Shown one piece after another: positions 27,587 through 41,341 of a DNA stretch of 41,341 nucleotides. A program made the translations under genes and the position numbers. Source of the stretch: a virus (Duplodnaviria > Heunggongvirae > Uroviricota > Caudoviricetes). The stretch lies in IMG/VR virus record IMGVR_UViG_2718217863_000002; one strand, written 5' to 3'. The first letter of the stretch is position 1. Each line of letters opens with the position of its first letter. A model generated the notes under the pieces. That model was not told the DNA's origin. It ran no database searches and was given only the letters and a program-made list of their open reading frames with translations.

Positions 27587-27607
27587 TTCATAAATTACAA
27601 AGGGATT

Positions 27608-28084
27608 CTATAGAAGGTTTTTCTTTGCCATTCTTAGCTTATGTTCGAGATTTCTTATTGTTATCCCTAGCTCATTAACTTTCTGCTTGGTATATCGTTC
27701 TGAATATATCCAGTAGTCTGATTTCTTCTCACATATGTCTGACAACTCAGGAGAAATATCTTGAAACAAGAGACCGACACGCCTCCACTCCTTTGCAAGT
27801 TCAAGTTCCCTTTGAGCGTCTTTAACACCTTGGTGTGCGAAATCCCTCAGGTAGGCCCGATTATCTATCAATAAATTTGATAGCGCTTCCAACTTGGATA
27901 ATGTTAGCTCTCGATTCTGTTTGGACCATGACAAATAGCATTCCCATAATCCAGTAATAGTAGCGCTTATATATTCGCCCATATTTAACGACCTGATTGT
28001 GTGCAAGTAGTTAAACATATCACAAACAACCAGTATTTGCATACTGCAGTGCCTTAACTTACCTTTCCTACGTTTTATTGACAC
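27608..28084 (-). CDS. hypothetical protein, third gene of the AT-rich module
   Basis: ORF track, 158 aa (true start may be internal); AT-rich; followed by its own terminator. Confidence 0.45.
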   Translation of the reverse strand: MSIKRRKGKLRHCSMQILVVCDMFNYLHTIRSLNMGEYISATITGLWECYLSWSKQNRELTLSKLEALSNLLIDNRAYLRDFAHQGVKDAQRELELAKEWRRVGLLFQDISPELSDICEKKSDYWIYSERYTKQKVNELGITIRNLEHKLRMAKKNLL

Positions 28085-28176
28085 ACTGCAAAGATTCTCT
28101 ATTGATTACTTTAGTTATCGAACTTGGCTGCTGTATCGACAAAATCATTGAGCCAAAGAACGAACTAAAAATACTA

Positions 28177-28806
28177 CTATTTAGGGTTTCTTGATGCTTG
28201 CGTAGCTAAAAGCGCATACGCTGTCATGAAAATCATAGATATTAAATCAAAAGTCATCAGCATTCCATATAATAATAAAAAGATACTCAACACATGTGTA
28301 ATAAACCCAACCTGGAATAGTTTCAGAAAAAACTCACCCATCAGGACAACAGCATATACCATTAGAGGATAAGCCATATCGACAACCATTAACGATGCGC
28401 CAAATGTTTTATTTTTACCGTTATGTTTGATAAGATTTATTTTCTCAATGAATTGATTCGGAAGGGCAAAAACAACAACAAACACACCAATGCCAAAACC
28501 TAATATGCTCGGAAATATGGATAAAGCAACAAGGGTTGCGTCGAGACCTGCAGTGTTTGAGTTGGGATTGTAAAGCCCATCTCTGAAAAATGTCACAATC
28601 AACAAACTTAAAACAAAAGTAAATAAAACACCAGAAAGTACCCTCCGCACCCAATTTTTGAAATTTGCAATTCGCTTCCTTTCTGATAAAACTCCAGAAT
28701 TAGCATAAAAGTTGGCAATGATAAAAATTGCACCAACATATGGAATAGACTTAATTATTTTAAGTATATTCTCATGATTAATGTCCCATCCACCAACTTT
28801 CATCAT
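28177..28806 (-). CDS. polytopic membrane protein (4-5 predicted TM helices), second gene of the AT-rich module
   Basis: 209 aa; hydrophobic segments IPYVGAIFIIANFYA, VLSGVLFTFVLSLLIVTFF, ATLVALSIFPSILGFGIGVFVVVFALP, MVVDMAYPLMVYAVVLMGEFF, ITHVLSIFLLLYGMLMTF; start 1 nt after the upstream stop. Confidence 0.6.
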   Translation of the reverse strand: MMKVGGWDINHENILKIIKSIPYVGAIFIIANFYANSGVLSERKRIANFKNWVRRVLSGVLFTFVLSLLIVTFFRDGLYNPNSNTAGLDATLVALSIFPSILGFGIGVFVVVFALPNQFIEKINLIKHNGKNKTFGASLMVVDMAYPLMVYAVVLMGEFFLKLFQVGFITHVLSIFLLLYGMLMTFDLISMIFMTAYALLATQASRNPK

Positions 28807-28807
28807 A

Positions 28808-29743
28808 CTATCCTTTTCTAATTTTCTTTAGCAATCCACTTCCTGTTCTGGACTCATTATTAGCTGCATTAATTGTGTTTTTCACATCATAATAATAGTC
28901 TAAAATTGATGCCCTTTTTTTCATAGACTCAGACACACGTTTTCTTACAGGATAATCGGCCATTTTGAAAACTTTTTTCTTATTGCTTTTGTCTTTATAA
29001 GATATTTCAGTATTCCCAAACTTGCATGATAAACCTGCATAAACCAACGCGATTGTACTAACGTCAGTCATTATTGAGTCTTTGTCTGATGACTCTTTAT
29101 GCTCCAGCTTATCAATCCCTTTATCTTTCATTTCAGCCTCAACCCCCTCTAGCAATTCTTCTAGTCCTTCAATAAAATCATTAGAGTTAGAGAAAGTTAT
29201 TTCTGTTTTAAAGGAATAATATCCTTTAGACTCTTTTATAACATTATCTAGACTAGCAGAAGATGTTAATTCATCAACACTCATGCGAAAGGATGGATAT
29301 AATTTCCTGCGCGCATCTTTAAACACCTCATTAAGCACCTTATATAAAACACTTGCGCTAGGTAATGAAGGGCTATCTTCGATAGCAAGGATATGCAATA
29401 CAGGATCAAATACAAACCTATACTCATAAATCTTACTAGACTCGCCAAAACCAGCTGCATAAGTCTGAACTCTGCTAATAGTTTTTCTAACAACATCTAC
29501 CTTGTCAAACTTTAAAAAACGACCATAAACCATGTCCTCTCTAGCATTTATTTCATACGGAGCAAAAAAGAAATCATTCCTCAATGGAACAGCGATATTT
29601 CTTAAATCACCTTCCGATGACAAAACTTTGCGAAGTTTGTCTCCCAGATGCTGGAATAATTTAATATAACCCTCTTTACCAATATGTTTTTTACTATTGG
29701 TTAGAGGTAGCATCTGTATATTATAATATTTGTAAGTAGCCAT
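28808..29743 (-). CDS. hypothetical soluble protein, first gene of the AT-rich module
   Basis: 311 aa; ATG at 29743; charged, Lys-rich; no motif recognised. Confidence 0.6.
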   Translation of the reverse strand: MATYKYYNIQMLPLTNSKKHIGKEGYIKLFQHLGDKLRKVLSSEGDLRNIAVPLRNDFFFAPYEINAREDMVYGRFLKFDKVDVVRKTISRVQTYAAGFGESSKIYEYRFVFDPVLHILAIEDSPSLPSASVLYKVLNEVFKDARRKLYPSFRMSVDELTSSASLDNVIKESKGYYSFKTEITFSNSNDFIEGLEELLEGVEAEMKDKGIDKLEHKESSDKDSIMTDVSTIALVYAGLSCKFGNTEISYKDKSNKKKVFKMADYPVRKRVSESMKKRASILDYYYDVKNTINAANNESRTGSGLLKKIRKG

Positions 29744-29833
29744 AAATATCCATTGCTATGTGAGTGTAAACACACATCATAATTCAATGGATTTTGTAAC
29801 ACTTAGCAACGCAATGGATAATTGGGACTTGCG

Positions 29834-30052: not shown

Positions 30053-30242
30053 TACTGGCCCCTTTCACAACTTCCGCCTTACGTTCTGCCGCGGCGATGG
30101 TGGCGGCGGCGTTTTCTTCGGTACGTTGCTGATCGGCTTTGGCTTCCGCCTTATTGGTCCCGCGAGCGTGACCAATGCCGAATGCACCAGCGATAGTGCC
30201 CAGGATTACGACCACCAGCCCAGCAATAATTTCTAAGCTCAT
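29967..30242 (-). CDS. candidate i-spanin (Rz-like)
   Basis: 91 aa; N-terminal TM helix then charged Ala/Lys/Glu-rich region; ATGA overlap with the upstream lipoprotein gene. Confidence 0.45.
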   Translation of the reverse strand: MSLEIIAGLVVVILGTIAGAFGIGHARGTNKAEAKADQQRTEENAAATIAAAERKAEVVKGASNVQQTVSHMPDDDVDRELREKFTRPGSR

Positions 30243-30547
30243 CGTTCATCCCTTACTGATTGCGGAACCTTGCCAACCATCTGGCTATGCGAACCTACCT
30301 CGGAAATCCCAATACCGCTGATACCGATGTATTCCTGTCCGGTCTGCTTATCCTGAATGAGATAAACACCCCGCCAATTTCCATATGCAAGCCCATCGCG
30401 GAACTCAGACATTTTTGTCACGCTAATCCGGTCTGCATCTGCAGAAAGTTGGGATGATACAGCCATAGTCGATTTGGCAGGTTCAGGGCTGGCATCACAC
30501 GCAGAAAGAAGAAGCGCAAAAGCGACCACACATATTTTCAGTTGCAT
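30239..30547 (-). CDS. lipoprotein embedded in the lysis cassette
   Basis: MQLKICVVAFALLLSAC signal peptide with lipobox; 102 aa; coupled to endolysin upstream and Rz-like downstream. Confidence 0.5.
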   Translation of the reverse strand: MQLKICVVAFALLLSACDASPEPAKSTMAVSSQLSADADRISVTKMSEFRDGLAYGNWRGVYLIQDKQTGQEYIGISGIGISEVGSHSQMVGKVPQSVRDER

Positions 30548-31178: not shown

Positions 31179-31459
31179 TAGTGCCTCAGTGCATCAACCA
31201 GACGCGCTATATTCCCCCTGAACCAGAGAACCGCGCCGCAGATAAGAATGTTTGCCAGTACCACCAGCCAGTGGGATGACTCGTACAAGCCAAACAGGAA
31301 ACGGAAAGGGATGCTGGCATAAACCAGCACAGTGAAGTAAGCCATCAGCGATATCATGGGGCGGTGTCTTGACCCGTCGCGCCGGTAGAACATCAACGCA
31401 CCAACAATTACAGCGCATATCACCGCATTGACGATTGCGCTCGGATCACTTGTTACCAT
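31178..31459 (-). CDS. holin or antiholin-like small membrane protein
   Basis: Probable start MVTSDPS at 31459; predicted TM helices; overlaps the upstream holin end and the endolysin start. Confidence 0.5.
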   Translation of the reverse strand: MVTSDPSAIVNAVICAVIVGALMFYRRDGSRHRPMISLMAYFTVLVYASIPFRFLFGLYESSHWLVVLANILICGAVLWFRGNIARLVDALRH

Positions 31460-31841
31460 TGCTTGTCCCTCCTCCACGTAAGCGAGAGAGAATCCCAAAC
31501 AGGCTACCCAGATCCTGACTGTTAACGAACGTCAGCAATTTAATGGCTATTGCTGCAACGATTACAGCACCGAGAGCATCAAGCGGCCTGTCACTGTACC
31601 CCGTCCACTTTGAGAAGTAAGACCCCAGCAGAGGAGCACCAATCACACCGAAGATGAATGAAGTTATGAAGTAGCCCACCAGCTTTAGGCGGCTGATATT
31701 TACCGCCGTCGCGACATAGAACACTGCCCCAGCGAACGCACCAAATACCACGCCATAATCAATGCCAGTTGCAAGGCCGAACATACTGGCCCCCATCAGC
31801 CCGCCAGCAGCTACCGTTGTGCCAGAAACAGGATCGGACAT
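31446..31841 (-). CDS. holin
   Basis: 131 aa with several predicted TM helices, first gene of the lysis cassette after Q. Confidence 0.6.
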   Translation of the reverse strand: MSDPVSGTTVAAGGLMGASMFGLATGIDYGVVFGAFAGAVFYVATAVNISRLKLVGYFITSFIFGVIGAPLLGSYFSKWTGYSDRPLDALGAVIVAAIAIKLLTFVNSQDLGSLFGILSRLRGGGTSNGNK

Positions 31842-31970
31842 TTAGCCCCCTCTTTTTGCTGTGAGTCCTCTCAATCGAGGGGAAAGATAAATTCTATTTA
31901 CTTGAATACCGTATGTACTTCTAAGGGTATACTTAGGATCTTTACGTTCGATTTAACACTGGAGCAAGAA

Positions 31971-32567
31971 ATGACCAGTTCAGAACTTTTGGAATTGATC
32001 AAAAAAGATGTAAGTGATGTAAAGCAACAAGGTTCAGAAACCATCCCGGTCGATAATTTACTTCACTATCTTTCAGAAATAGATGTGACAGAGCAGCCAG
32101 AGGCTAATGCTTTAACTCTCGAAGGGATTAAACATCAAAACTCCACCCAATTGGAAATAATGAAAATTGAAAATAGCTTTCAAATAGAGTCTTTCAAAGC
32201 TGCTATCAGTATTGGTGCGAATGCTTGCAGAACATTTCTAATAATGAATGGAGGTGCAGCAATCGCTCTGTTGGCTTTTTTAGGAAATATTTGGAACAAG
32301 AATTCCTCAGCTGAAGCTGCGTCTGCTATCGCATCAGCTCTCTATCTTTTCTGTGGAGGAGTCGTTCTGGCCGGACTTTGTTCGGGCTTATCCTATTTCT
32401 CACAGTGCTGCTTCGCATCATCATATCTTGGAACCAAAAAATTTTATCTTTGGCTCGGGCATACAATAAATGCTGTAGCTTGTATATGCGGCGCCGGTTC
32501 CATCTTCATATTTGCTTATGGTTCCTATTGTGCTTATCAATCAATGATTGCTCAGTTAGTAAAATAA
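31971..32567 (+). CDS. membrane-anchored hypothetical protein (opposite-strand insert at the Q-holin junction)
   Basis: ATG at 31971 with GGAG RBS (MTSSELLELIKK...); soluble N-terminal ~100 aa then about three hydrophobic segments; AT-rich; own terminator. Confidence 0.5.
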   Translation: MTSSELLELIKKDVSDVKQQGSETIPVDNLLHYLSEIDVTEQPEANALTLEGIKHQNSTQLEIMKIENSFQIESFKAAISIGANACRTFLIMNGGAAIALLAFLGNIWNKNSSAEAASAIASALYLFCGGVVLAGLCSGLSYFSQCCFASSYLGTKKFYLWLGHTINAVACICGAGSIFIFAYGSYCAYQSMIAQLVK

Positions 32568-32570
32568 AAA

Positions 32571-32599
32571 AACCCGCTCATTGGCGGGTTTATGTTTTG
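32571..32599 (+). terminator. rho-independent terminator
   Basis: AACCCGC-tcattgg-GCGGGTT then TATGTTTTG immediately after the stop. Confidence 0.55.
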
Positions 32600-32642
32600 T
32601 TCTGCTGCTCAGTTCGCTTTAACGTCCCGAGCCTATCACAAT

Positions 32643-33221
32643 TCAAGCAGTTTCTGGCTCACTTTGCAAGTAAAATCTGTCGCGATTTGTGCCGAATGCG
32701 TCACACATTGGTGCGTACAGCATCGATTCTGCCAAACTTATCCATGCATCAACTCTTCTCCTACAGGTCATAAAGCACCAGTCAGGATGCTTTTCATAGA
32801 GCTCTTCCGCTATGCGGCGTTTGCTCTTCCGTAACCGGTAATGCTCCACCAGCAGGTGATACAGCTCTTTGTGACCACCCGTAATAAGGACTGCCCCCAG
32901 TACCTTATCAATCAGCAGTCCTTCATCGTCTGTACAGAAGGCCAGGCCGCTTTTGTTTTTCCCCGCGAGTATTTCACGAAAAAACGCCTCAAGCTCAGGC
33001 TTCGAGATGCCAGACTTCTTCATCCGGCGTAATGCTTCGTTGATGGCTGTTTTAGTGACTTTCCCGGAAGCCAGTAACTGGTTAAACATATTGCCGCCAC
33101 TACCGCCGCCGATGTAAGACCAGCGGCCCCACATGCGCAGCTTCCCCTGAATCCAGATGGCCTCCAGCGTTTTCAGCCTGACCATTTCACCAGCTTTTCC
33201 AACCTCGGACGGGTTAATCAT
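32643..33221 (-). CDS. putative late antitermination protein (Q-like)
   Basis: ATG at 33221 with GGAGAA RBS (MINPSEVG...); RMWGRW motif resembles the RWGAW motif of some Q proteins; position directly upstream of the lysis genes. Confidence 0.45.
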   Translation of the reverse strand: MINPSEVGKAGEMVRLKTLEAIWIQGKLRMWGRWSYIGGGSGGNMFNQLLASGKVTKTAINEALRRMKKSGISKPELEAFFREILAGKNKSGLAFCTDDEGLLIDKVLGAVLITGGHKELYHLLVEHYRLRKSKRRIAEELYEKHPDWCFMTCRRRVDAWISLAESMLYAPMCDAFGTNRDRFYLQSEPETA

Positions 33222-33234
33222 TATGCGTTCTCCA

Positions 33235-34215
33235 CTATGCCAGCACGCCAATTGCCAGCGAACGATCCAGAAATCGAAACAGCAGCTCAAGCTGTGAGCC
33301 GTACTTCTCCTCAAATGCCACGGTGTCAGCGTGCAACTCGTCGTGATGTGCTCTGCAAAGCGGCAACACAAACAGGTCATGCGCTTTTGTTCCCATTCCA
33401 CCTTGTCCGTGGCCTATCAGGTGATGGGGATCATCTGCTGGTTTGTTACAGCAGACACACTGCTGGGACTTAACCCAGCGCGTCCAGCTCTCGTTTACCC
33501 AGCGGCGGCGCTTTGGTCGCAGCATGAATGATTCCGGCGTTTCAGGATCTACGCGAAGACCGAGAATCTTTTTCTGTACCACTTCGCTCGCCGCTGGCTC
33601 CGGCACAATATCGCTCTCCTTCATCACTGGTTGATGCTTTATTTCCGGCAATCGCAGGGCTTTCCGGGCCAGCGATTCAGGGATGACGTGCGCCAGATTG
33701 TTTATCACCAGCCACCAGCACAACTCCGGGATCGTCAGTTGATGGTCTTCGTTGAACCCCAGCTGTGAGCGGATGACCGTTATCAGCCAGGATACCAGGT
33801 TCTCACGCGCAATGCCTGCCAGCGTCTCTGTGTACTGATCACGCAGCAGGTTATCGCAGGCCCAGCAAAGGCGGATGCTGCCAGGCTCATGCCGGAACAG
33901 CGTAAAATTTTCGCTGTGCCATGAGCCGTGGGGATACTGGCATTCAAAACGACGCTCCAGCTCGGCCTCCAGCGAGCTAATACCACCCGCGCGCAGAATG
34001 ACGTCTTTGTTTTCGAGTACTGGTATCAAAACTGGGTCTTCTGCCAGTGGCTGCGTAGCGGGAGGAATGACGCCGGTTGCATAGTCGCTGTATTTTTCCG
34101 GTGCAGGCTCAATCAGTACCCGCCCTCTCCTGAACATCGGCATGAGATCAGCACCTGGGCGAAGCAGAACAACGCCCATGCGTGGGGCAATCTCAGGGGT
34201 TAGTAGTGCTCTCAT
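33235..34215 (-). CDS. phage protein with C-terminal Cys/His-rich HNH-like motif (DUF968-like)
   Basis: 326 aa; C-terminal CVCCNKPADDPHHLIGHGQGGMGTKAHDLFVLPLCRAHHDELH. Confidence 0.4.
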   Translation of the reverse strand: MRALLTPEIAPRMGVVLLRPGADLMPMFRRGRVLIEPAPEKYSDYATGVIPPATQPLAEDPVLIPVLENKDVILRAGGISSLEAELERRFECQYPHGSWHSENFTLFRHEPGSIRLCWACDNLLRDQYTETLAGIARENLVSWLITVIRSQLGFNEDHQLTIPELCWWLVINNLAHVIPESLARKALRLPEIKHQPVMKESDIVPEPAASEVVQKKILGLRVDPETPESFMLRPKRRRWVNESWTRWVKSQQCVCCNKPADDPHHLIGHGQGGMGTKAHDLFVLPLCRAHHDELHADTVAFEEKYGSQLELLFRFLDRSLAIGVLA

Positions 34216-37577: not shown

Positions 37578-38273
37578 ATGAAAATAGGATCTCGCATACG
37601 ACAACTTCGCTTAGCGAAGAACATTAAAATCGCAGAGCTTGCAGAAGCTGTGGGCGTTGATGCTGCCAATATTTCCAGGCTTGAAACTGGTAAACAAAAG
37701 CAGTTTTCAGAACAGACACTTAACCGACTTGCTCAAGCTTTAAGCGTAAGTGTACCTGACCTATTTACCTCTGACGAAAATGATACTACTGTACATATAA
37801 ACAGTAAAAAATATGCATCTCCCGTAAAGGATGTGGATGTATACAGAGTCGAGGTACTTGATGTGAGCGCAAGCGCCGGGGCAGGACATATACACGGTAG
37901 TGACGTCATAGATGTCATTCATGCTATCGAGTTCAGCAATGATCAGGCATTGGCAATGTTTGGTGGCAGGACTCCATCTGGAGTAAAGGTCATCAACGTT
38001 CGCGGTGATAGCATGGCCTCAACGATTGAGCCTGGCGACCTAATCTTTGTGGACGTAACTATCAATGAGTTCGATGGGGATGGGATTTACGTCTTTGGTT
38101 TTGATGGAAAAGTTTATGTTAAACGCCTGCAGATGATACCAGACCAACTGCTAGTCATCTCTGATAACCCTCGTTATAGAGAATGGAATATAACTAAAGA
38201 GAATGAACACAGATTCTATATCTATGGAAAGGTTTTAATAAGCCAGTCTCAGTCCTTTAAACGGCATGGATAG
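37578..38273 (+). CDS. cI: CI-type repressor (N-terminal HTH, C-terminal S24 LexA-like autopeptidase)
   Basis: HTH IKIAELAEAVGVDAANISRLETGK; C-terminal GDSM with Ser and downstream Lys (VKRL); 231 aa. Confidence 0.85.
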   Translation: MKIGSRIRQLRLAKNIKIAELAEAVGVDAANISRLETGKQKQFSEQTLNRLAQALSVSVPDLFTSDENDTTVHINSKKYASPVKDVDVYRVEVLDVSASAGAGHIHGSDVIDVIHAIEFSNDQALAMFGGRTPSGVKVINVRGDSMASTIEPGDLIFVDVTINEFDGDGIYVFGFDGKVYVKRLQMIPDQLLVISDNPRYREWNITKENEHRFYIYGKVLISQSQSFKRHG

Positions 38274-39972: not shown

Positions 39973-40209
39973 ATGTCACGTATGGTCTCTTTACTCGAAT
40001 GGGCAAAAGATGAATTCGGTAGTGAAGCCCCTAGCGAGCGAGTATTAAAAAAATATGCTAAAGGCCAGATGATAGCACCACCACCGATGAGAGTCGGGCG
40101 GCGCTGGATGGTTGACAAAGAGGCTCGTTTTATAGGTGTAGTTGCTGAACCTCAACTTCCAATAAATGTTAACCCAAAACTGAGACGGATAATTAGCGAT
40201 GGCAGCTAG
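39973..40209 (+). CDS. xis: excisionase-like protein
   Basis: ATG at 39973 with GGAGA RBS; KGQMIAPPPMRVGRRWMV resembles the lambda Xis region RIFPPPVKDGREYLF; overlaps the int start. Confidence 0.5.
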   Translation: MSRMVSLLEWAKDEFGSEAPSERVLKKYAKGQMIAPPPMRVGRRWMVDKEARFIGVVAEPQLPINVNPKLRRIISDGS

Positions 40210-41341
40210 ACCGCGTACCCATAAAATCACTATTCCAAACCTATATTGCAAACTTGATAAACGTACCGGAAAGGTTTACTGGCAATACAAACACCCTATC
40301 TCTGGTCGTTTTCATAGCCTCGGCACGGACGAAGCTGAAGCAAAGCAGGTGGCAAGTGAAGCAAATACGATTATTGCAGAGCAGCGCACCAGGCAGATCC
40401 TTGGTATTAACGAGCGTCTGGCTCGCATGAAAGGAAACCGCACGGATATTACAGTTTCTTCATGGCTCGACAAATATGAATTGGTGCAGGAGGAAAGATT
40501 GAAACACAACGAACTGCGCCCAAACTCTTTTCGACAGAAAGCTAAACCAATTCGTCTTTTTCGTGAGCATTGTGGTATGCAATATCTAAAAGATATAACA
40601 GCACTTGATATTTCCGAAATAACAGATGCTGTTAAGGCAGAGGGTCATAACAGGATGGCTCAAGTTGTACGCATGGTACTAATAGATGTTTTTAAAGAGG
40701 CTCAACATGCTGGTCACGTTCCTCCGGGATACAACCCTGCCCAAGCAACGAAACAGCCACGAAATAAGATAAGCAGACAAAGGCTATCTCTGGAGGAATG
40801 GGAGGCTATTTATACATCCGCCGAACAACAACAACCTTATTTGCAATGTGGAATGTTGCTTGCCATTGTAACAGGGCAACGCCTCGGGGATATTTGCAAT
40901 ATGAAGTTTTCGGATGTATGGGATGATATGCTGCATATTGAGCAGGAGAAAACAGGAACTCGTTTAGCCATTCCCCTTTCTCTCAGAAATGAGGCGTTAA
41001 ATATTACTCTGAGTGATGTTATTTCAAAATGTAGAGATGCTGTGGTGAGTAAATATCTTGTTCATTTTCGCCATAGCACCTCACAGGCTAGTCGTGGTGA
41101 CCAAGTGTCAGCCAAAACACTTACTTCAACGTTCAAGAAAGCACGGGATAAAAGCGGTCTTACCTGGGAAGAAGGAACAGCACCGACTTTCCATGAACAG
41201 AGGTCTCTTTCAGAGCGATTGTATCGTGAGCAAGGAATAGACACTCAGAAACTATTGGGCCACAAAACAATGAAAATGACTGACATATACAATGATGACC
41301 GCGGCAAAGAGTGGATCGTTGTTGGTAAAAAAGCAGTATGA
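40199..41341 (+). CDS. int: tyrosine integrase (lambda Int family)
   Basis: 380 aa; C-terminus HEQRSLSERLY ... LLGHKTMKMTDIYNDDRGKEWIVV parallels lambda Int including the catalytic Tyr context; stop at the window end. Confidence 0.9.
   Translation: MAARPRTHKITIPNLYCKLDKRTGKVYWQYKHPISGRFHSLGTDEAEAKQVASEANTIIAEQRTRQILGINERLARMKGNRTDITVSSWLDKYELVQEERLKHNELRPNSFRQKAKPIRLFREHCGMQYLKDITALDISEITDAVKAEGHNRMAQVVRMVLIDVFKEAQHAGHVPPGYNPAQATKQPRNKISRQRLSLEEWEAIYTSAEQQQPYLQCGMLLAIVTGQRLGDICNMKFSDVWDDMLHIEQEKTGTRLAIPLSLRNEALNITLSDVISKCRDAVVSKYLVHFRHSTSQASRGDQVSAKTLTSTFKKARDKSGLTWEEGTAPTFHEQRSLSERLYREQGIDTQKLLGHKTMKMTDIYNDDRGKEWIVVGKKAV

Follow-up and report, generated by a model that had tools for sequence, protein, structure and literature searches.

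The IMG/VR virus record IMGVR_UViG_2718217863_000002 is a 41,341 nt stretch of DNA, here called the window, that represents most of a lambdoid prophage. The subject of this analysis is a gene of 198 codons found between the genes for the Q-like antiterminator and the holin, which runs on the plus strand from an ATG at 31971 to a TAA at 32565–32567. All of the genes around it are on the minus strand, and specify the Q-like protein, the holin, a second holin with three transmembrane (TM) segments, a GH19 endolysin, a small lipoprotein and an Rz-like spanin. The open reading frame (ORF; 31971–32567, + strand) corresponds to hypothetical protein WP_057077933.1 (A0A1X9TP34) and is preceded by a GGAG ribosome-binding site (RBS; 31961–31964, +), readable in the sequence 6 nt 5' of the ATG. 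A longer version (221 aa) beginning at an upstream TTG (31902) was dropped, as all homologues begin at the equivalent of the ATG at 31971. An original prediction for this locus, made before any database search, had described a 198 aa plus-strand gene with this start codon and RBS, and both the sequence and the homologue starts bear it out.

The same prediction placed the gene against the direction of the late operon, and the Pfam and PHROG matches of its neighbours agree with this. The Q-like antiterminator (32643–33221, −) belongs to the DUF1133/Phage_antitermQ proteins (PF06576, 7e-93; PF06530, 7e-10; PHROG 753), and the holin (31446–31841, −), which is the first gene of the lysis cassette, to Phage_holin_8 (PF16931, 5e-39; PHROG 198). 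The gene is also AT-rich, as had been claimed, with a GC content of 39% against 49% in the flanks. The homologues, which are 27–98% identical, show patterned conservation, and the ratio of nonsynonymous to synonymous substitution rates (dN/dS) is 0.08–0.25 where synonymous sites are unsaturated; judged by these values, the ORF is a real gene under purifying selection.

The slot between Q and holin

The limits of the insertion are provided by a prophage of E. coli strain 219 (L151), in which the holin proteins are identical to those of the window, the Q protein is related, and only 156 bp lie between the two. In a BLASTn comparison, the homology of this prophage to the window (97.9%) extends to 31891 and resumes at 32562, with a 23 bp spacer in place of the intervening DNA. 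Since homology breaks at these points, the cargo was delimited to 31892–32561, a segment of 670 bp that the related prophage lacks at its empty site, and the boundaries obtained against ES4 agree within a few bases. By these alignments, the segment is a true insertion, AT-rich (38.7% GC; flanks, 48.6%), foreign and carrying a single gene. It has the presence and absence between relatives and the deviant base composition of a moron in the sense of Hendrix and Juhala, and lacks the terminator of its own that is also part of that description. The earlier proposal of a moron is well supported by the empty site, the alternative cargo, the deviant composition and the recurrent position and orientation, and it is highly probable that this moron encodes a real inner-membrane protein.

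Of 5426 complete E. coli genomes, 63 were found to contain the Q module (32562–33240), and ten of these also have the moron. At the same slot, ES4 (L146) has a gene for a 110 aa protein, DETEC-E223 has two hypothetical genes, and E. coli D10 (L150, 1876–2472) has a gene for an unrelated 198 aa protein with one hydrophobic segment, all on the late strand, while EC31 has about 500 bp without an annotated gene. Because relatives fill the same slot with differing genes, the Q–holin interval is, on this comparison, a cargo hotspot. The D10 protein was considered as a possible relative of the moron protein, given its equal length, and rejected as it gave no hidden Markov model (HMM) match; it counts as a further membrane cargo without characterisation.

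In E. coli GENOMIC23-001 (L003, 4122–5644), an insertion sequence (IS) of the IS3 family cuts the moron after about 90 codons, so that the gene must be dispensable there. A silent passenger, that is, a hitch-hiking gene that is unexpressed and without effect in this prophage, could account for the interrupted copy, for the occurrence of the gene in only 10 of the 63 E. coli genomes with the Q module, and for the lack of a consensus promoter upstream of it. Such a gene would not be expected to remain an intact ORF whose protein is found in identical form on 390 contigs, nor to show a dN/dS well under 1, a good RBS and an end that coincides with a terminator, and we consider this the least probable of the explanations weighed here.

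Outside E. coli the position recurs. In prophages of Enterobacterales (Pectobacterium, Pantoea, Citrobacter, Serratia, Klebsiella/E. coli, and several metagenomic contigs), the gene is always antisense within the Q-to-lysis interval. The accompanying Q proteins are of the DUF1133 or PF03589 types or unassigned, and are combined with at least three holin types (by context, Phage_holin_8 plus 3_7, Phage_holin_3_1, or unassigned) and two endolysin types; the slot is sometimes shared with a gene for an NS endonuclease or an N6/N4 methyltransferase. On IMG/VR contigs of the enteric type, both neighbours lie on the opposite strand in 18 of 21 cases, and the neighbours on IMG/VR contigs are mostly Q-like proteins, holins, endolysins and spanins. 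On more distant viral contigs, the gene converges on that for the Rz-like spanin at the far end of the lysis cassette. Judged by these positions, the family has been captured repeatedly at the borders of phage lysis cassettes. The only homologue in the GenBank phage records, that of Paraburkholderia phage IPK (L002, 3598–8398), lies between the integrase gene and a 588 aa ORF on the opposite strand that reads as strongly hydrophobic; the record is unannotated, and the locus is a typical att-proximal moron region.

Several well-known phage genes offer precedents for such an arrangement. The original prediction had compared the site with the slot in which Stx phages carry their toxin genes, a comparison that is sound for the Q-to-holin position but not for the orientation. 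The stx genes occupy the same slot, are co-oriented with the late operon, depend on Q read-through and are expressed on induction, whereas any expression of the antisense moron gene would fall in the period without late transcription. A closer precedent, and the nearest analogue in layout, is nmpC of the DLP12 prophage (lc porin in phage PA-2), a single-gene cargo with the same slot and the same antisense orientation; the gene order in E. coli K-12 is quuD(+)–nmpC(−)–essD/rrrD/rzpD(+). The K-12 copy of nmpC is interrupted by IS5, much as one E. coli copy of the moron is interrupted by IS3. The two products are not homologous, NmpC being an outer-membrane beta-barrel porin with a signal peptide, while the moron protein is all-helical, is predicted to lie in the inner membrane and has no signal peptide. 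The bor gene of lambda (borD in DLP12) is likewise an antisense, single-gene moron, situated directly after Rz/Rz1, a position shared by distant members of the moron family, but Bor is an outer-membrane lipoprotein of about 97 aa involved in serum resistance, and differs from the moron protein in fold, location and family. Antisense precedents in the annotations thus comprise sieB and bor of lambda, sieA and sieB of P22, and nmpC and borD of DLP12.

Terminator and late transcription

The claim that the gene has its own terminator did not survive comparison with relatives. The hairpin itself (32570–32591) is a real, bidirectional intrinsic terminator, with a folding energy of −15.4 kcal/mol on the plus strand (z −4.5) and −12.0 kcal/mol on the late strand (z about −4), but it is conserved together with the Q module in prophages without the moron, and all of the relatives examined, with and without cargo, have kept it with some alteration of the loop. 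On the late strand, the hairpin is followed by a perfect U7 tail (32572–32566), like that of tR', and the stop codon of the moron lies inside the corresponding A7 run. On the plus strand, it is followed by UUUAUGUUUUGUU, in which the U-tract is interrupted. By its conservation, the hairpin belongs to the phage backbone, as part of the Q module, and would end the moron transcript on the plus strand while acting as a tR'-like terminator on the late strand. At the empty site of strain 219, a second late-strand terminator comes after the hairpin and before the holin leader, so that two stand in tandem.

Since these terminators separate the Q gene from the lysis genes, any late transcript has to begin upstream of both and run through the cargo in antisense. 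From this layout and established lambdoid biology, we infer that Q-modified polymerase crosses the whole cargo antisense in order to reach the holin gene. A candidate for the start of such transcripts is a conserved non-coding block beside the stop codon of Q (32592–32650, −; 2469–2525 in L151 of strain 219), where about 50 nt show 94% and 84% identity in comparisons that give 72% in the adjacent Q coding sequence. A promoter scan found no readable consensus promoter in the block. Together with the terminators, it probably represents the late promoter, Q-utilisation (qut) site and tR' set of the DUF1133-type antiterminators, and a PR'–qut–tR' set is annotated at the equivalent place in P22. 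To our knowledge, this set has not yet been mapped for antiterminators of the DUF1133 type.

On the other side of the cargo is the holin leader (31842–31891, −), which is part of the conserved backbone and contains a CCCCTC...GAGGGGG pairing that would cover the Shine–Dalgarno sequence of the holin gene. The pairing is kept, with a variable loop, in at least eight prophages with this holin (the window, L013, L107, L112, L118, L122, L146 and L151). The predicted fold of the leader (−12.8 kcal/mol) was not significant against shuffled sequences (z −0.96), and an Rfam search gave only subthreshold matches, caused by the terminator hairpin.

These features raise the question of whether the moron serves the lytic programme of its own phage, either through its protein, as an antiholin-like factor or a stabiliser of the proton-motive force, or in cis, where convergent transcription and antisense RNA directed at the late leader, or read-through into Q, would dampen leaky expression of the late genes in the lysogen. 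The phage-borne copies invariably lie at one edge of the lysis cassette, transcription of the late operon has to pass over the gene in antisense, the interrupted U-tract on the plus strand may leak towards Q, and antisense control of Q has a precedent in the a23 RNA annotated in P22. The gene is not co-transcribed with the lysis cassette, being on the strand opposite to the holin, endolysin and spanin genes. A specific antiholin is made unlikely by the differing holin partners, and hhalign found no similarity to either holin of the window (probability about 1% or less), nor was there any match to holin models of Pfam or PHROGs. Moreover, most members of the family have no phage or holin nearby, the strong selection at the protein level opposes a role purely in RNA or in cis, and the borders of operons are generic sites for morons, as nmpC and bor illustrate. 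Taken together, a modulator of lysis or late expression is improbable.

The encoded protein and its relatives

The AlphaFold2 (AF2) model of the protein has a predicted local distance difference test (pLDDT) score of 92.8, and shows a helix-loop-helix (residues 3–19 and 27–36) followed by three longer helices (43–108, 114–150 and 157–196). From the model, charge counts and hydropathy, residues 1–84 (31971–32222, +) are predicted to form an acidic, all-helical head in the cytoplasm. The 66-residue helix 43–108 starts in the head and continues into the membrane as TM1 (residues 85–107; 32223–32291, +), and is followed by TM2 (117–141; 32319–32393, +), after which come the conserved Y142 and Q145, and by TM3 (161–186; 32451–32528, +), with the conserved F181 and G184. 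Hydropathy peaks near residues 95, 130 and 175 match the soluble N-terminal part and roughly three C-terminal TM segments that had been foreseen for the protein, and the charge counts give a weak positive-inside signal for an N-in, C-out topology. The prediction is therefore of an inner-membrane protein in which a cytoplasmic helical head of about 85 residues runs as one long helix into a three-helix bundle.

Conservation is concentrated in the first membrane helix. The alignment of homologues shows a signature in TM1, N93-G-G-A-A-I-A-L-L-A-F-L-G105, the residues of which are invariant across 25 enteric homologues, and this helix is the most conserved segment of the protein, the mean frequency of the commonest residue being 0.71–0.89 compared with 0.25–0.69 elsewhere. 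The head is the most variable part of the family and the loops also vary freely; outside TM1, only E73, G82, A85, F127, G130, Y142, Q145, F181 and G184 are conserved. By these alignments, the conserved functional core of the protein is its first membrane helix, NGGAAIALLAFLG. The variable head is rigidly joined to a conserved bundle, every face of the Gly/Ala-rich TM1 is under constraint, and conserved polar residues are found close to the cytoplasmic side. Such an architecture points to an effector in the membrane, or to a protein that works with some conserved membrane component.

Small polytopic inner-membrane proteins with a highly conserved TM helix are also found among immunity proteins, and the moron might protect against a toxin that damages the membrane, for example a pore-forming bacteriocin or an effector delivered by contact or by a type VI secretion system (T6SS), in the manner of the colicin immunity proteins with 3–4 TM segments that intercept toxin helices in the membrane. 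The family gene stands alone in variable regions, as would suit such a role, and one of its neighbours is an Imm33 protein. However, a toxin gene was never adjacent in the loci examined, the Pfam models for colicin and bacteriocin immunity proteins gave no match, and we know of no immunity protein with a cytoplasmic head of 85 residues, so that immunity of this kind has a very low probability.

Searches of Pfam, PHROGs, NCBIfam and PADLOC with the moron protein gave no match; the sole line returned by NCBIfam, cola_mem at E 0.046, is far below the cut-off and was treated as noise. A Pfam search with 69 relatives was also negative. A sequence-profile search of the PDB gave only weak matches, to mL40 and calmodulin and within the helical head, which were rejected as compositional or generic helix-loop-helix similarity: the calmodulin (EF-hand) match has an E-value of 0.06–0.3 over residues 1–49, and the loop K19-QQGSETI-P27 lacks acidic ligands and has the wrong Gly-to-Ile spacing. 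RefSeq and UniProt label the protein hypothetical, its identical sequence is present on 390 contigs, and its 90% cluster is mainly from Klebsiella pneumoniae. A literature search on the accession numbers and on similar prophage membrane proteins returned nothing on the family; papers on svsR and HepS were set aside, as they concern other loci.

The statement in the original prediction that no family could be recognised is correct for the curated libraries, but not overall. A word-indexed search retrieved 34 relatives from Klebsiella, Enterobacter, Kosakonia, Phytobacter, Pectobacterium, Pantoea and Citrobacter, and a profile search placed the protein in a family of 4161 clusters at E ≤ 1e-3 (1853 at E ≤ 1e-10), mostly chromosomal. 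The 150 best-scoring proteins listed have, with few exceptions, a length of about 185–210 aa, and their source names, where carried, are non-functional. This uncharacterised family, defined in the present analysis from alignments A1, A2 and A5, is referred to as the 'NGGAA-TM1' family, and the moron protein shares its length (about 190–200 aa), its helical head and three TM segments, and its residues N93, G94, A99, F103, G105, Y142, Q145 and F181. Two anomalous members were seen. A 445 aa protein of a metagenome-assembled genome (MAG; L058) was not accepted as a domain fusion, and looks like a truncated member reading through into an ORF with a GxGxG motif similar to that of S-adenosylmethionine (SAM) methyltransferases. 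In a Methylotenera MAG (L077, 483–881 and 2623–3195), two members are encoded on one strand within about 2 kb of each other, an example of local paralogues.

Eighty genome loci were retrieved, from Alpha-, Beta- and Gammaproteobacteria, Nitrospirota, Planctomycetota, Verrucomicrobiota and others. All-against-all clustering of the 1063 ORFs at these loci revealed no recurrent partner, and the genome copies showed no orientation bias. The GC content of the family gene is below that of its flanks at 65 of 70 loci in genomes and at 42 of 43 in viral contigs. As it has a lower GC content than its surroundings and no conserved neighbour, the family, by these measures, behaves as a stand-alone gene that moves.

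The largely chromosomal distribution of the family also fits a gene that has no link to phages, captured from the bacterial chromosome, in which the family would have a routine cellular function, and that serves the host's membrane physiology as a lysogenic-conversion gene, for example by encoding a small channel or a factor in envelope or ion homeostasis. This is the main rival to the explanation preferred below, and is a doubtful one, though not to be dismissed lightly. The 4161 clusters are nearly all chromosomal and range across the phyla listed above, some copies sit in housekeeping neighbourhoods, and genome copies lack an orientation bias. Within the protein, the conserved polar residues E73, N93, Y142 and Q145 are placed close to the cytoplasmic side of the bundle, and the Gly/Ala-rich TM1 may be likened to pore-lining helices. 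On the other hand, a physiological role of this kind is not accompanied by a conserved operon partner or synteny, the lower GC content at 65 of 70 genome loci is more in keeping with an accessory gene than with a core gene, and repeated capture at the borders of lysis cassettes is left unexplained.

Elsewhere in the window, a lambda-type integrase gene (40199–41341, +) and the gene for a CI-like S24 repressor (37578–38273, +) were identified. A second AT-rich block (27600–29750, −; 33–39% GC) separates the lysis cassette from the terminase genes and looks like further late-strand cargo. It contains genes for a DUF4747 protein (28808–29743, −), which is annotated in a shorter form (786 nt) in E. 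coli 5CRE51, and ORFs of 209 aa (28177–28806, −) and 158 aa (27608–28084, −); none of the three was given a function by Pfam or PADLOC. Between the endolysin and Rz-like spanin genes is one for an extra protein of 102 aa with the lipoprotein signal LLSAC (30239–30547, −; PHROG 16585, of unknown function). A PADLOC match of this lipoprotein to UzuA (E 1e-4 over 20 residues) is probably spurious, and ES4 appears to lack the gene, its GH19 endolysin gene being followed directly by a gene of 276 nt. The left end of the window (2668–8463) carries a UmuC-like polymerase gene (2668–3993), a possible UmuD partner (3935–4369) and a Gin/Cin-type invertase gene (4919–5488), beside which two plus-strand ORFs without a Pfam match (5580–7739, 719 aa; 7648–8463, 271 aa) may form an invertible tail-fibre segment.

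Possible roles in the lysogen

The original prediction had taken the orientation to imply expression in the lysogen, in keeping with a lysogenic-conversion or exclusion factor, and this part of it still stands as an inference. A lone, AT-rich, mobile gene placed antisense in a lytic operon matches known lysogen-expressed protective genes. For this reason we tentatively prefer, as a possibility more than a probability, an inner-membrane anti-phage factor expressed by the prophage that blocks entry or aborts infection. The cargo is inserted just downstream, in the late direction, of the tR'-like terminator of the Q module and just upstream of the holin leader. In the lysogen, the gene would be transcribed independently of Q from a weak promoter of its own, the presumed site of which is the upstream region (31892–31970, +), where a −10-like TATACT can be read at 31928–31933. 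After induction, Q-modified polymerase would read through the terminator and cross the gene antisense, so shutting it down. The protein would act at the inner membrane and protect the lysogen from other phages, either by blocking the entry of their genomes in the way of SieA, or by aborting infection through a membrane lesion coupled to a sensor, with the variable head as sensor and an oligomer centred on TM1 as effector.

Among the characterised proteins of this kind, SieA of P22 is the closest in type. This inner-membrane protein, about 160 aa long, is predicted to have three TM segments, lacks a signal peptide and contains the motif FxRYPxEAxxFNK (PMC10883804). In the annotation of P22, sieA has a promoter of its own and runs antisense to the late region in which it lies. 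SieA lacks the 85-residue cytoplasmic head, its motif is absent from the moron protein sequence, and it is confined to P22-like phages, whereas the family of the moron is huge and mostly chromosomal. SieB of lambda and P22 (184–192 aa) and RexB are lysogen-expressed components of abortive infection of similar size, and sieB is likewise antisense in a lytic operon.

Several results weigh against an anti-phage function. The likeness to known exclusion proteins does not extend to sequence: alignment of A5 with P22 SieA by hhalign gave a probability of 0.1%, comparisons with the SieB proteins of lambda and P22 gave 0.15% and 0.5%, and that with RexB 0.2%, there was no Pfam match of any kind, and no family among the defence models of PADLOC-DB 2.0 was matched at E ≤ 1. 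By these searches, the protein is outside the SieA, SieB, RexB, holin and PADLOC families. The periplasmic loops, of about 9 and 12 residues, are so short that they offer little surface to incoming phage proteins. A homologue was found in only one of 50,697 GenBank phage records, and in 3 of 72,556 plasmids, most members of the family being chromosomal and some of them among housekeeping genes, such as a Methylophaga copy that is flanked by genes for an ABC transporter and pdxH. In a Pfam and PADLOC scan of 137 immediate neighbours, for which there is no baseline, these were heterogeneous and only a handful were defence-like. The lower GC content of the gene may in part reflect the codon composition of membrane proteins. 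A scan of the plus strand upstream of the gene found no match to a consensus sigma-70 promoter; the upstream regions of homologues are not conserved and contain −10-like hexamers 25–45 nt before the ATG, and as they could not be aligned, promoter conservation could not be used as evidence.

A more ambitious form of the anti-phage explanation is that the whole family represents a novel kind of anti-phage system, encoded by one gene and acting at the membrane, in which the head senses infection and an oligomer built on the NGGAAxALLAFxG helix blocks DNA entry or collapses the membrane. The antisense placement would then be functional, since Q-driven late transcription would switch the gene off and so spare the carrier phage. 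We regard this stronger version as rather unlikely at present, but if the family were proven to be such a system its interest would rise.

The arrangement at this locus is textbook moron biology and its layout is not new; what is new is the gene, an uncharacterised member of the class. The locus illustrates that a moron may dispense with its own terminator by landing beside the bidirectional, tR'-like hairpin of the Q module. Its position next to the hairpin would also place the gene under late transcription, and the layout may in this way act as a switch that allows expression in the lysogen and silences the gene in the lytic cycle. Beyond the single prophage, the gene gives access to a family of more than 4000 clusters that the curated libraries do not cover, and for which there is now a confident structure model and one near-invariant membrane helix. 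Its carriers are prophages of clinical E. coli and Klebsiella, and a function established for this gene could carry over to thousands of hypothetical proteins.

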